Source of the DNA: an uncultured Clostridium sp.
GTDB taxonomy: Bacteria > Bacillota > Clostridia > TANB77 > CAG-508
Assembly (NCBI GenBank): GCA_947650745.1
Contig: CANSWM010000004.1
Coordinates: 1-32,000, forward strand
Reading direction: 5' to 3'
DNA length: 32,000 bases
The notes below the pieces were generated by a model that saw only the letters and a list, made by a program, of their open reading frames with translations, ran no database searches and was not told where the DNA came from. The translations under genes and the position numbers were made by a program. Of the stretch, positions 21,184-28,114 are shown one piece after another (the stretch's first letter is position 1; the number at the start of each line of letters is the position of its first letter).

Positions 21184-21675
21184 TTATTTATATTGTTGTG
21201 ATTTTTCTTCTAACATTTTGAAATCACAACATCTATCAATTATTCTTTGTGGTAGTTTTTTGTTTATAACTCTATTATATAAATTTTTAGCTCTGTTTAA
21301 GATTATATTTGCATTTTCCCTTTCATTGCACCAATGTATTTGCTTATATAATAATGTTTTATATGTTTGATCTTGTTCATTTTCGACATCAATTTTTATA
21401 CATTGCTCCATTGGAATTGGTATCATATTATTAAAGTTAATTGCTCCTAAACTTCCATTATCTATTTTTAAAAAGTCTATTGTATTCTTCATTTTTAAGT
21501 GTTTTGGTTTAGGAGATGTGAATGGTGCAAAATATAGTATTTCATCTACTTTTAATACAATTCCTATAAATGGTCTTCTTGCTTTTTCATCATAGGATTT
21601 TGATATTCTTTTATCAAATTGGCTCATATATTTTACATATTCTTCTTTAACTATATAAAAATTTAATTTTTCCAT
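21184..21675 (-). CDS. toxN: type III toxin-antitoxin toxin, ToxN/AbiQ-family endoribonuclease
   Basis: The 163-aa ORF begins MEKLNFYIVKEEYVKYMSQFDKRISKS...RRPFIGIVLKVDEILYFAPFTSPKPKH. This matches the conserved N-terminal core recalled for ToxN and AbiQ. It has an AGGAG SD and lies directly downstream of tandem RNA repeats and a hairpin. Confidence 0.85.
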   Translation of the reverse strand: MEKLNFYIVKEEYVKYMSQFDKRISKSYDEKARRPFIGIVLKVDEILYFAPFTSPKPKHLKMKNTIDFLKIDNGSLGAINFNNMIPIPMEQCIKIDVENEQDQTYKTLLYKQIHWCNERENANIILNRAKNLYNRVINKKLPQRIIDRCCDFKMLEEKSQQYK

Positions 21676-21696
21676 TTATTGCTCCTTAATAAATTA

Positions 21697-21716
21697 GGAT
21701 ACCATTTCTGGTATCC
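21697..21716 (-). terminator. hairpin between the antitoxin repeats and toxN (attenuating terminator as in ToxIN loci)
   Basis: GGATACCA (21697-21704) pairs with TGGTATCC (21709-21716) around a 4-nt loop. On the minus strand it is followed by UAAUUUAUU and then the toxN SD. Confidence 0.6.
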
Positions 21717-21720
21717 CTAC

Positions 21721-21830
21721 TTTTTTCGTTCTTCACTTTATGGTAGAAGTTCACCGCTTTTTTCGTTCCCCACTTTATGGTAGAGGCTCACCGCTTTTTT
21801 CGTTCCTCACTTATGGTAGAGGCTTACCGC
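21721..21830 (-). ncRNA. toxI: ToxI/antiQ-like antitoxin RNA, three tandem 36-37 nt direct repeats
   Basis: The repeats occupy 21721-21757, 21758-21794 and 21795-21830. The plus-strand unit is TTTTTTCGTTCYYCACTT(T)ATGGTAGARGYTYACCGC. The minus-strand unit is GCGGUGARCYUCUACCAUAAAGUGRRGAACGAAAAAA. The units are contiguous with no spacers, each ends in an A6 tract, and they lie between a consensus promoter and toxN. Confidence 0.8.
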
Positions 21831-21872
21831 TTTTTAAACAATAATCAAATTATTGTTTATTTTATTATATTC

Positions 21873-21901
21873 ATTATAAGTTATTTTATTACATTTGTCA
21901 A
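21873..21901 (-). promoter_or_regulatory. consensus sigma-A promoter driving toxI-toxN
   Basis: On the minus strand, TTGACA (21896-21901), an exactly 17-nt spacer and TATAAT (21873-21878) lie about 40 nt upstream of the first repeat. Confidence 0.65.
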
Positions 21902-21920
21902 TCATTTTACATTGACTTTT

Positions 21921-21941
21921 GAGGTTCCAATTTGGAACCTC
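21921..21941. other. perfect 9-bp palindromic hairpin upstream of the toxIN promoter
   Basis: GAGGTTCCA (21921-21929) pairs with TGGAACCTC (21933-21941) around a 3-nt loop. It lies between the HAD gene end and the toxIN -35 box and may act as an insulator, terminator or operator. The flanking runs do not give a clean minus-strand U-tract. Confidence 0.4.
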
Positions 21942-22057
21942 ATTAATTTTATAATTAGTTTTTTACTTCTCTTTAATTTCTTTATAATTATATATCATAT
22001 TTACCACTGGCTCTATTTTAAACTAATTACTCGCACTCATCAATCAAATGTGGATAA

Positions 22058-22633
22058 TTAGTTTAATTCTTTTATAATTCTATATATGTCTCCCCAATTA
22101 TTTACTTCTTTTATGTTCTTGTTTTCTTCTAGTTTTACTAAATCTGTATCTCTAAAATATAATGTTTTTATATTATTGTCTGCTAATTTCTTTATGATTC
22201 TCCAATCATCATCAATCATAATATCTATGTTTTCATTTTTGCATACTTCTAATTTATCATCAATTTTCCAATAATATTTATCAAAAATAATCTTATTTTC
22301 TTCTAATAATCTTATTGCATCATCTTTCATCTCTTTAACAAATCCACCTCTAGCAGTAATAACTACAAATTCGTGTCCTTGTTTTTTTAGTAGATTATAT
22401 ACTCCTACAAACCCTGACATTAGATTACTTTCTTTTGATACTGTTAAAAAATATTTTTCAATAAATTCTTGTTTTTGTTCTTCTGTCCAATTATATCTAG
22501 CTTGAAATTTTGGCTCTTCTCTATTTATTAAATTATTTCCTTTTACAGTATCTATATCAAATATTTCTTCATAAGTTCTAAAAGTTGTTTCACTGTCTAT
22601 AACAACTCCATCTAAATCTATTCCTATCTTCAT
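22058..22633 (-). CDS. HAD-superfamily 5-prime(3-prime)-deoxyribonucleotidase-like phosphatase
   Basis: MKIGIDLDGVVIDSE carries the DxDG(V/T) HAD motif I. Downstream are VVITARGG and IMIDD motifs. GGAGG SD lies 5 nt upstream of ATG 22633. The track ORF begins at an upstream TTG (22645). Confidence 0.7.
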   Translation of the reverse strand: MKIGIDLDGVVIDSETTFRTYEEIFDIDTVKGNNLINREEPKFQARYNWTEEQKQEFIEKYFLTVSKESNLMSGFVGVYNLLKKQGHEFVVITARGGFVKEMKDDAIRLLEENKIIFDKYYWKIDDKLEVCKNENIDIMIDDDWRIIKKLADNNIKTLYFRDTDLVKLEENKNIKEVNNWGDIYRIIKELN

Positions 22634-22650
22634 TACTTCCTCCAATATTT

Positions 22651-23280
22651 TTATGTTTGACCTTTTCTATCTTTTAAATATTTCTTTACTGTTTCAATTA
22701 CTTCATTATGTACTTTTCCATTACTAATAACTGCTCCATTTATGCTTTCATCATATCTTTGTTCATTTCCAAATAAATCTGTAACTTTTCCTCCTGCTTC
22801 TTCTACTATAACCTTAACTGCTGCAATATCACAATTTTTATGTTTTGTACCAGGAAAAATAGCAAGACTAAAATCTCCAGAAGCAACACACATACAAGCT
22901 CTTATAATGCTTCCTAATCCAATAATATATGTTTTATTTCCTAATTCTTGTAATACATTAGATATATTATAATCTGCTCCAACCCATAAATCATAATGAC
23001 ATACAGTTTTCATATCATCTAATTCATAGTCATTTACAGTTATTTTTTCTCCGTTTTTATATGCACCTTGTCCTTTTATAGCAGTATATAAGCTATCTGT
23101 AAAAGGATCATATACTAATCCAACTGCTGATTTTCCCTTAATAACTAAAGCTAGTGAAAATACTGCTACTGGAATATGTGTAGCATACATTGCTGTTCCA
23201 TCAACTGGATCACATACCCATACATAATCACTTTTTCCAAATTGTTCTTCTTCTCCATCTACTGAATGAGAGGGATATTT
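22651..23280 (-). CDS. inositol monophosphatase/FIG-superfamily protein, with the open frame extending upstream of its first ATG without a start codon
   Basis: The frame of ORF 22651..23190 stays open to 23280. It encodes KYPSHSVDGEEEQFGKSDYVWVCDPVDGTAMY..., containing the IMPase GEE and W-x-x-DP-x-DGT metal-binding motifs. No ATG, GTG or TTG is available upstream of 23190, so it is probably joined to 23259..23645 by a frameshift. Confidence 0.65.
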   Translation of the reverse strand, partial: KYPSHSVDGEEEQFGKSDYVWVCDPVDGTAMYATHIPVAVFSLALVIKGKSAVGLVYDPFTDSLYTAIKGQGAYKNGEKITVNDYELDDMKTVCHYDLWVGADYNISNVLQELGNKTYIIGLGSIIRACMCVASGDFSLAIFPGTKHKNCDIAAVKVIVEEAGGKVTDLFGNEQRYDESINGAVISNGKVHNEVIETVKKYLKDRKGQT

Positions 23281-25169: not shown

Positions 25170-25424
25170 TTACAAGTTTTCTATTTCAGATATTCCCACC
25201 TTATATTCAATATCTTCCATAAATGGAAAAATTTCCATTATATATTTCTTAGTTACCATAGCCATTTTAGCTGGTGGATTTTTTTGTCCTACATTTATTA
25301 GCTTTTGTGTATAACAATTTTCAGCAGTCTTAAAAAGCAGATATCTATTTGTTAAATAAGTAAAGTAAACTTGATATCCTTCATTTAAAATACCTTCAAA
25401 TTGTTCAAAAGTAAAATTTTCCAT
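25170..25424 (-). CDS. hypothetical protein (84 aa)
   Basis: Intact ORF immediately downstream of ligA, with a weak SD (AAAGG). No family recognised. Confidence 0.4.
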   Translation of the reverse strand: MENFTFEQFEGILNEGYQVYFTYLTNRYLLFKTAENCYTQKLINVGQKNPPAKMAMVTKKYIMEIFPFMEDIEYKVGISEIENL

Positions 25425-25482
25425 TTCGAAATTACCTTTCTTGAATATCTATAACGTTCCTTGATGTTCAATGTTTGCCAAT

Positions 25483-27483
<2,001 letters not shown>

Positions 27484-27508
27484 TTGTTTATTTTCCTCCT
27501 ATAAAAGC

Positions 27509-28114
27509 TTATCTATCTTTAAATAGGTCTTTTCCCCCTTTTATGTAATCCCATCCCGAAAATATTGTGCTAAATACTGAAATTAACATCATAATACTTG
27601 TAATCATATTTATAACAAGCTCTGGGAATGTTAAATTTCCATGTATAAATCCAAAAAATATATTTGTTCCATTTATATTTATAAAAGCAAATATTATTGC
27701 TATCATTTGCGTTACTGTTTTTAGTTTTCCCCAATTTGATGCTGCAATAACTTTTCCTCCTTGTTCTACTGCAATTAATCTATATGCAGATACAACAAAT
27801 TCTCTTGTTAATACTATTATTGGTATCCATGCAGGTAGCATTTGTTTTTCTACTAAAATTAGCATTGCAGCAAGTACTAATATTTTATCTGCAATTGGGT
27901 CTAAAAATTTTCCAAAGTTTGTCACTAAATTTTTAGAACGAGCTATTGAGCCATCTAGTTTATCGGTAATTGAAGCAATTATAAATATAAAATTCATTAT
28001 CCAGAATTGTAGTTCAATTCCAAAAATTTCATTTGTTAGCCCTAAGAATGGAATTATTACCATTACTGGAACAAGGCATATTCTAATAATTGTTAATTTA
28101 TTTGGTAAATTCAT
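27509..28114 (-). CDS. pgsA: CDP-diacylglycerol--glycerol-3-phosphate 3-phosphatidyltransferase
   Basis: Intact 201-aa ORF. The CDP-alcohol phosphatidyltransferase motif is DKLDGSIARSKNLVTNFGKFLDPIADK. It has multiple TM helices and no in-frame CGG. Confidence 0.9.
   Translation of the reverse strand: MNLPNKLTIIRICLVPVMVIIPFLGLTNEIFGIELQFWIMNFIFIIASITDKLDGSIARSKNLVTNFGKFLDPIADKILVLAAMLILVEKQMLPAWIPIIVLTREFVVSAYRLIAVEQGGKVIAASNWGKLKTVTQMIAIIFAFININGTNIFFGFIHGNLTFPELVINMITSIMMLISVFSTIFSGWDYIKGGKDLFKDR

Follow-up and report, generated by a model that had tools for sequence, protein, structure and literature searches.

Organization of the locus

The DNA considered here, referred to below as the window, comprises positions 1 to 32,000 of contig CANSWM010000004.1, from the assembly GCA_947650745.1 of an uncultured Clostridium sp. 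On its minus strand lies a short locus that is very probably a type III toxin-antitoxin (TA) system of the ToxIN family, that is, one composed of a ToxN/AbiQ RNA-cutting toxin and of an RNA antitoxin made of repeated pseudoknots. In the direction of transcription, the locus consists of a sigma-70-type promoter, a leader hairpin, an array of tandem repeats (toxI), an intrinsic-terminator-like hairpin, a Shine-Dalgarno (SD) sequence and a 163-residue open reading frame (ORF), toxN (Table 1). An earlier note on this DNA had already described most of these elements, and its inventory proved accurate: the promoter, with its 17-nt spacer, lies exactly where it had been placed; the three A6-ended repeats of 36-37 nt at 21721-21830 were found both by Tandem Repeats Finder and by parsing the units; the SD sequence and the ORF are present; and the 8-bp hairpin at 21697-21716 reaches 9 bp if extended to the limits given in Table 1. 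The leader hairpin is additional to the elements listed at that time. The order of promoter, tandem repeats, terminator and toxin matches the criteria published for toxIN architecture (PMC3401426), so that the canonical design proposed in that note holds, together with a ToxI pseudoknot supported by covariation. Indeed, every ToxIN feature that can be sought in a sequence, namely the family and fold of the toxin, its catalytic residues, the length and number of the repeats, the terminator, the promoter and the pseudoknot, appears to be present.

Table 1. Features of the toxIN locus and of its surroundings in the window
Feature	Position	Strand	Basis
Hairpin upstream of the promoter	21920..21942		10 bp
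Sigma-70-type promoter TTGACA-17 nt-TATAAT	21873..21901	-	12/12 consensus positions (sequence match)
5' leader hairpin	21835..21859	-	11-bp stem, minimum free energy (MFE) and centroid folds
toxI antitoxin array (A5 run and three units)	21721..21835	-	Tandem Repeats Finder, unit parse, alignment to ToxI_Bt and ToxI_Pa
Intrinsic-terminator-like hairpin in the toxI-toxN gap	21696..21717	-	9 bp (4 G-C), 4-nt loop, fold
Shine-Dalgarno AAGGAG	21683..21688	-	7 nt 5' of the ATG at 21675, read from the sequence
toxN, 163-aa ToxN/AbiQ-family endoribonuclease toxin	21184..21675	-	PF13958, PADLOC AbiQ, PDB, AlphaFold2
47-aa ORF and large serine recombinase (context, outside the TA mechanism)	18592..20799	-	Pfam, co-inheritance

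The promoter is the sole site matching the consensus at all 12 positions in a scan of the region around toxIN, and it is kept in the closely related loci. In the whole window, perfect TTGACA-17-TATAAT sites number three, all on the minus strand, versus 0.03 expected from shuffled sequences. The two further sites, at 1511-1539 and 5006-5034, are probably real strong promoters of other genes.

The toxin

The product of toxN was matched by the Pfam model ToxN_toxin (PF13958) with an E-value of 8.6e-51 and 172.7 bits, the cut-off being 25, and by the AbiQ model of PADLOC (E 6.7e-40). The earlier note had proposed a profile search of this kind and had recognized the ToxN/AbiQ core in the N-terminal half of the ORF; the family assignment was upheld, whereas its limitation to one half was not, as the match covers profile positions 1-159 of 159. 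The only PDB proteins matched by sequence were four members of this family, all of them end to end: 4ATO (ToxN_Bt, 3e-22), 7D8O (ToxN_Ec, 8e-21), 2XD0 (ToxN_Pa, 8e-20) and 4GLK (AbiQ, 1.7e-12). A homologue with 75% identity bears the NCBI name "type III toxin-antitoxin system ToxN/AbiQ family toxin". NCBIfam gave no match for the toxin, for the 47-aa ORF downstream of it (orf47) or for the 195-aa and 339-aa neighbours, and a scan of viral contigs for relatives of the toxin found none.

An AlphaFold2 model of the toxin, built on 50 homologues, reached a predicted local distance difference test score (pLDDT) of 92.1. When this predicted model was compared by Foldseek, the template modelling (TM) scores were 0.82 for 7D8O and 2XD0, 0.79 for 4ATO and 0.78 for 4GLK, followed by CptN with 0.61 (E 9e-3) and MazF with about 0.3. 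The ToxN fold is defined by a twisted antiparallel beta core and a long kinked helix, and is related to MazF/Kid; the predicted model has this fold. Since the four ToxN/AbiQ structures score best, with CptN and MazF lower, the protein is assigned to the ToxIN family and not to CptIN/TenpIN. The latter systems share the same logic of repeat array, terminator and endoribonuclease toxin, but their repeats are longer (means of 45 and 51 nt, PMC3401426; the repeat criterion for these families is 40-57 nt). Membership in CptIN/TenpIN was considered and rejected on three grounds: the CptN TM score of 0.61 versus 0.8 for ToxN, the Pfam match to ToxN_toxin only, and the repeat length of 36-37 nt.

The active site of ToxN_Pa comprises Tyr29, Lys33, Thr52, Ser53 and Lys55 (PMC5086642), and that of ToxN_Ec Lys33, Thr52, Ser53 and Lys55; in the latter enzyme, Tyr110 and Gln117 serve to hold the RNA (PMC8860590). 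In the window toxin, Thr53, Ser54 and Lys56 align with Thr52, Ser53 and Lys55 of ToxN_Pa, and Arg34, located two residues before the FIGIV strand, has the same placing as Lys33; all four catalytic residues therefore have an equivalent. An Arg in place of Lys33 is known in some E. coli ToxN clusters (PMC8860590). All 50 homologues have Arg34 and Lys56, as well as Tyr105 and Gln112. Measured against nine species-level relatives, dN/dS (the ratio of non-synonymous to synonymous substitution rates) of toxN is 0.01-0.13 at dS 0.10-0.32, which indicates that the toxin is under strong purifying selection.

The toxI array and its predicted pseudoknot

Tandem Repeats Finder delimited the array at 21720..21835, with a period of 37, 3.2 copies and 91% matches. 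On the minus strand, an A5 run (21835-21831) precedes three units, at 21830-21795 (36 nt), 21794-21758 (37 nt) and 21757-21721 (37 nt), each of them closed by A6. Six alignment columns vary among the units, in agreement with the five or six differing positions counted previously. Repeat number and length are within the ToxIN range (31-62 nt, 1.9-5.6 copies; PMC3401426), and the 36/37/37 pattern recurs in independent short-read assemblies.

The ToxI template is an H-type pseudoknot, with two interleaved stems of 3-4 bp and characteristic loop lengths (PMC3401426). The general pattern of the units is GC-GGU-R-xx-(stem 2a, 4 nt)-U-ACC-AUAA(A)GU-(stem 2b)-AACG-A6, which in the window reads GC GGU R AG CCUC U ACC AUAA(A)GU GRGG AACG A6. 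These units align, free of gaps in both stems, to the crystallised ToxI_Bt (pAW63, TTGGTGTAACTCTACCGTAGTGAGTACCAAAAAA; UU GGU G UA ACUC U ACC GUAGU GAGU ACC A6) and ToxI_Pa (pECA1039; CA GGU G AU UUGC U ACC UUUAAGU GCAG CUAG AAAUU). Stem 1 is GGU/ACC, and stem 2 is CCUC/GAGG, CCUC/GGGG or CUUC/GAAG; the array thus holds a compensated change, from CCUC/GAGG to CUUC/GAAG, plus a wobble variant, CCUC/GGGG. The loops (3 nt between 1a and 2a, 1 nt between 2a and 1b, and 6-7 nt between 1b and 2b) are those of Group I of PMC3401426, and the AAGU element 5' of stem 2b is kept.

Pairs were counted in an alignment of 14 sequences (A2) that includes both crystallised ToxI RNAs. In this alignment, all 98 cells of the pseudoknot pairing (100%) are standard pairs, stem 1 is invariant, and the four stem-2 pairs all change on both sides. 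The covariation score was 0.427 versus 0.163 +/- 0.03 in shuffles, of which 0 out of 500 scored as high, and sliding the partners by 1-3 columns made pairing fall to 42-63% of the cells. From these counts, the repeat unit is predicted in silico to keep the two-stem pseudoknot of ToxI. Two other alignments were left out of the pair counts, namely a MAFFT alignment of 57 distinct units (A1), in which stem 2a is interrupted by a gap wherever the linker of the unit is shorter, and a covariance-model alignment (A4), which is ragged for distant units. A small covariance model (R1) derived from the alignment found exactly the three window units in the 32 kb, at 50-55 bits, these units being in its training set; it also recovers units in loci outside that set.

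Hairpins flanking the array

The leader hairpin follows the predicted transcription start and ends at the first A-run; it consists of an 11-bp stem (UAAACAAUAAU/AUUAUUGUUUA) with a 3-nt loop; its z-score is -5.0 versus shuffles. The loci of gut Firmicutes nearly all have a hairpin of unrelated sequence at this place, with z-scores of about -2 to -7, while the locus of the lactococcal plasmid pCV56A, discussed below, is devoid of a 5' leader hairpin. We infer that this hairpin is a feature of the precursor at the RNA level, and a putative, plausible role for it would be that of a 5' stem-loop guarding the transcript against 5'-to-3' decay in Firmicutes.

On the other side of the array, a hairpin in the position equivalent to that of the window terminator is found in almost every related locus; its sequence differs from one to another and its T-tail is mostly better than in the window. 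A further inverted repeat of 9 bp (TTGTGATTT...AAATCACAA) was observed at 21190-21240, close to the 3' end of toxN, in the final 50 nt of its coding sequence, and might be a candidate 3' stabiliser or terminator. An Rfam scan of the locus (E up to 10) yielded only spurious miRNA, snoRNA and sRNA matches arising from hairpins, the miRNA matches being due to this inverted repeat.

Upstream of the promoter, a G+C-rich hairpin of 10 bp (TGAGGTTCCAATTTGGAACCTCA) carries a T-rich tail on the plus strand, and it is exactly at this hairpin that high-identity homology with many related loci starts. This hairpin probably either terminates transcription of the gene upstream or insulates the cassette from neighbouring transcription.

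Related loci and alternative readings

Relatives were collected by scanning one genome per species, which gave 39 loci (the loci compared here are numbered L001 onwards where they have to be told apart), all in gut metagenome-assembled genomes labelled Clostridium sp., Clostridia, Bacilli and so on. At least 11 of these loci encode toxins 94-99% identical to that of the window. Repeats of the same type and a hairpin stand upstream of toxN in about 36 of the 39; nearly all the loci, those with toxins only 42-51% identical included, have one to four GCGGUG...RCC...A-run units and then a hairpin ahead of toxN. The stem-2 helices differ by lineage, with 23 distinct versions (UCCA/UGGA, CCCA/UGGG and UUCC/GGAA among them). 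In most close loci, the 111-nt array shows 0-3 differences, while synonymous sites have diverged by 10-30%. The array thus seems to be under purifying selection like toxN, which lends indirect support to a toxic ToxN neutralized by its cognate RNA. In L003, a copy of the unit-3 type replaces unit 2.

Three of the distant relatives carry an extra single ToxI-type unit about 200 nt 3' of toxN (L013, 3676-3710; L014, 853-888; L016, 3551-3584), and in L013 and L014 a perfect consensus promoter is also seen further downstream of toxN; the extra units suggest tandem or second toxIN loci. A toxIN-like locus was likewise noticed at about 5423-5852 of CP069348.1, the 132-kb unannotated Clostridioides phage-plasmid pCD1602_4, with 69% identity to the window over the repeats and the 5' part of toxN.

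The distribution of the arrays bears on whether the repeats are an RNA antitoxin at all. They could instead be coding, through the 94-aa plus-strand ORF 21777..22061, or represent protein-binding iterons or a purely cis-acting attenuator: the ORF does overlap both array and promoter, and in the vicinity of recombinase genes such repeats may serve as binding sites. However, the arrays are always placed between promoter and terminator upstream of toxN, even in loci devoid of a recombinase, the compensatory changes preserve pairing in the minus-strand RNA, and the units are homologous in sequence to crystallised ToxI RNAs. As for the ORF, which had been said in the earlier note merely to translate the repeats, it does exist and has no NCBIfam match, but it covers only about half of the array, the remainder of the overlap being with the promoter. 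A nature other than that of an antitoxin is accordingly regarded as extremely improbable.

Several observations weigh against a ToxIN assignment or against parts of it. Tyr29 of ToxN_Pa has no aligned equivalent in the window toxin, nor has it one in ToxN_Bt. The terminator hairpin is followed by a weak T-tail (AATTTATT), and the antitoxin-to-toxin ratio could for this reason differ from the 10:1 of ToxIN_Pa, where read-through of the terminator is about 10% (PMC7781912). A position-free test of the pseudoknot, in which the best helix between unit halves was compared with shuffled or swapped partners, found a helix of at least 4 bp in 95% of the real units and in about 49% of the shuffles; it was judged non-discriminating and dropped in favour of the position-specific count, so that the structural support rests on that count and its 14 sequences. 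The Rfam family for ToxI, RF02519 (34 positions, gathering score 50 bits), gave no match at E up to 10 in window positions 20800-22300. This model scores the B. thuringiensis array at 59, 47 and 40 bits, nothing being scored in the window, and it misses the array of pCV56A as well; it is narrow, and its failure is for this reason no argument against homology. The description of the antitoxin as unannotatable is accordingly right in so far as Rfam misses it and wrong in that Tandem Repeats Finder or a small covariance model finds it easily. Moreover, the window contains frameshifted housekeeping genes, and the homopolymer lengths in it should for that reason be taken with some caution. Finally, toxN is decayed next to an intact array in some relatives, through an internal stop (L007), frameshifts (L010) or truncation (L023, L026 and L032). 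The presence of such decayed close relatives indicates that loss is tolerated, and a decayed toxN beside an intact array is the pattern expected if loss of the toxin is tolerated while the antitoxin persists.

The last of these points, together with the weak terminator tail and the other fragmented genes of the window (ligA, the ABC transporter and the inositol monophosphatase, described below), could be taken to mean that the locus is a decaying or inactive relic, in which repeats and ORF are recognizable and no working toxin-antitoxin pair is left. Against this stand the full length of the ORF relative to the profile, the integrity of all the catalytic equivalents, the low dN/dS, the perfect consensus of the promoter and the presence of both stems, with compensatory changes, in all three units. 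In addition, the identical protein occurs on at least nine contigs from different samples. A relic is thus considered very unlikely, and the reading of the locus as a ToxIN-family system is retained in what follows.

Comparison with characterized systems

Among the systems with a solved toxin structure, ToxIN_Bt, from plasmid pAW63 of B. thuringiensis (4ATO), gives the best sequence match to the window toxin. It shares the order of promoter, array, terminator and toxN, and its array comprises 2.9 units of 34 nt, bounded by A6 and homologous in sequence (GGTG..CTCTACC.TA.GTGAG..A6); the A^AAAA cleavage reported for ToxN_Bt (PMC7781912) fits the A6 boundaries of the window. In contrast, the toxins are only about 30% identical, the loop between 1b and 2b is 2-3 nt longer in the window, the units start with GC and not TT, and the B. 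thuringiensis locus is plasmid-borne, whereas that of the window lies in a chromosomal-looking island beside a serine recombinase.

The closest annotated DNA match to the window array, with 79% identity, is the toxIN locus on plasmid pCV56A of L. lactis CV56, whose three units of 35-36 nt (GCGGTGAATCTCYACCATYAAGTGAGAATCA6) allow the same pseudoknot parse. This locus also has a perfect consensus promoter, and the two toxins are 43% identical; it differs in its stem 2 (TCTC/GAGA), in the leader hairpin mentioned above and in its location on a conjugative plasmid. The antitoxin of pCV56A belongs to the same repeat subfamily as the window array.

The archetype of the family, ToxIN_Pa from plasmid pECA1039 of P. 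atrosepticum (2XD0/2XDB), has a toxin of the same fold as that predicted here, with the same Thr-Ser-x-Lys motif, and a 36-nt unit with an identical GGU/ACC stem 1 and AAGU before stem 2b, as well as a terminator between toxI and toxN. Its differences from the window locus include its 5.5 units, an AAAUUC boundary with AA^AU cleavage (PMC7781912) instead of an A6 run, a Lys at position 33 where the window has Arg, the presence of Tyr29 and its origin from a Gram-negative plasmid. AbiQ/antiQ, from plasmid pSRQ900 of L. lactis (4GLK), belongs to the same family; units of 35 nt, 2.8 in number, make up its array, and cleavage takes place at A^AAA within a stretch rich in A (PMC7781912). AbiQ is, however, the most distant of the four solved ToxN-family proteins (23% identity), and its catalytic Ser51 stands where the others have Thr.

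Proposed mechanism

For the way in which the locus would work, the ToxIN family serves as the guide: cleavage position, stoichiometry, read-through ratio, toxicity, neutralization and biological role are all proposed here by analogy. Briefly, a single strong constitutive promoter would drive a transcript made of a short leader with its 5' hairpin followed by the three ToxI-type repeats. Most transcripts would end at the hairpin behind the array, and a minority would read through into toxN, 20 nt downstream, so that the RNA antitoxin would be made in excess over the toxin. ToxN, as a metal-independent endoribonuclease with a MazF-type fold, would then cut the precursor within the A5/A6 runs that bound the units and release single units, which in this family bear 2'-3' cyclic phosphate ends. 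The enzymes of the family cut at A-rich sites, as the earlier note had stated, and the A5/A6 bounds of every window unit are consistent with the specificities of ToxN_Bt and AbiQ. Each of the three released units, of 36-37 nt, would fold into a compact H-type pseudoknot, whose single-stranded A-rich tails would occupy and block the active sites of adjacent ToxN molecules; the assembly would probably be a closed 3:3 ring (heterohexamer) like those of the solved complexes.

If a phage infected the cell or the locus were lost, transcription or the supply of RNA would be disturbed; the short-lived antitoxin would decay, and the ToxN thus freed would cleave A-rich sites in cellular and phage RNAs, leading to growth arrest. 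The density of runs of at least five A is 10.6 per kb for the coding strand of the window (27% GC), and toxN itself contains eight; a freed enzyme of that specificity would, given such frequent runs, behave as a general mRNA interferase. Abortive infection is a role of some family members, and phage defence would be the role of this locus by analogy with them.

Linkage to a serine recombinase and mobility

A role other than defence is brought forward by the genes that follow toxN. On the minus strand, orf47 (20758..20615) is followed by the gene for a large serine recombinase of 630 aa (20540..18648) with the Pfam domains Resolvase, Recombinase and Zn_ribbon_recom. When six of the contigs with an identical toxin were examined, five of them showed the same 47-aa ORF and a recombinase of 612-630 aa directly downstream (364 aa on one). 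The block of about 3.3 kb, with limits near 21926 and 18592, shows about 95% identity across contigs and is found with at least five different right-hand flanks, which contain acetyltransferases, FolD-like genes or others; in the window, the flank holds an ABC transporter. Its right boundary is sharp, at about 18592, after ...ACCACAGATATTGAGTAT, with different genes beyond. The occurrence of the block in varied flanks shows that the toxIN cassette is clearly mobile.

In addition, the end of the recombinase in L001 abuts sequence that in the window lies at 25215-23899, 6.6 kb upstream. Such a junction would be expected from an element in excised, circular or permuted form, and it is a hint that the 6.6-kb island downstream of ligA may occur in a permuted or circular state. 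The same molecular machine might therefore have as its main role the addiction to, or stabilization of, a small mobile element, be it the toxIN-orf47-recombinase unit or the larger island. A passage of PMC3401426 states that type III loci contribute to the maintenance of genetic loci as well as to phage defence, and the linkage to the recombinase makes element maintenance at least as plausible as abortive infection for this locus. On the other hand, copies of the cassette without the recombinase exist (L002, L006-L010 and L046), and a search for attachment (att)-like direct or inverted repeats around the recombinase block returned only AT-rich chance matches. Maintenance and defence are not mutually exclusive either, and several characterized ToxIN/AbiQ systems abort phage infection. 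Maintenance as the main role is therefore put forward tentatively, as a possibility to be taken seriously although short of an even chance.

A more specific proposal, which is considered rather unlikely, is that toxIN is the sole cargo of a self-mobile unit of about 3.3 kb (21926..18592, with toxI-toxN, the 47-aa ORF and the recombinase) spreading among gut Clostridia, in which the TA pair would serve for retention, as portable defence or both, and that the leader hairpin is also a hitherto undescribed functional element of the precursor, such as a cap against 5' exonucleases setting the half-life of the antitoxin.

Some neighbouring genes are broken. The gene for the NAD-dependent DNA ligase (ligA, 25400-27600, minus strand) is present in several frame-shifted pieces, an ABC-transporter membrane protein is split into two fragments, and an inositol-monophosphatase-like ORF lacks its N-terminal third (15889-18101, 22651-23190). 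The fragmentation suggests indel errors in the assembly or pseudogenes. Genetic code 4 was considered as its cause and rejected: the ligA translation shows frame shifts and not in-frame TGA codons, which makes indel errors or pseudogenes the more likely explanation.

Significance and phage-borne ToxI-like units

The locus is ordinary in its kind. Blower et al. (2012) catalogued toxIN loci in many Clostridia and listed that of pCV56A (PMC3401426), and a ToxIN system in a gut Firmicute is of low surprise. What is added is a single well-formed ToxIN locus, that of an uncultured Clostridium lineage of the gut with low GC content, within a family already surveyed in Firmicutes. The analysis also makes apparent that the Rfam model for ToxI misses a widespread GCGGUG...ACC...A6 subfamily, present 5' of toxN in most of the 39 species-level genomes and in lactococcal plasmids, and the window array supplies, within one array, natural compensatory variants of stem 2 of the pseudoknot.

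Units of the same type were also observed in phages. Fourteen records of lactococcal c2-type phages (20-22 kb; for example vL_14A, vL_308A, vL_6A, CHPC1242, CHPC1183, 05802, 62402 and CHPC967) contain one or two ToxI-type units (GCGGTRAATCTCYACCATTAAGTGAGAA..A6) that share the pseudoknot parse of the pCV56A array. In Lactococcus phage vL_313A, the units (PQ594014.1, 14637-14717; L041, 1506-1577) lie in intergenic DNA immediately 5' of the endolysin gene, and no toxN adjoins them; in the other 13 records, the match overlaps an annotated endolysin or lysin, or no annotated feature. By analogy with the pseudo-ToxI of phage PhiTE, a comparable case (PMC3475682), they look like candidate natural phage-borne mimics of the antitoxin. 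A literature search found nothing on ToxI mimics for lactococcal phages.

The practical value of the finding is modest. Somewhat more interesting are the repeated association of toxIN with the gene for a large serine recombinase in differing contexts and the ToxI-like units upstream of the phage endolysin gene, which could be natural antitoxin mimics.

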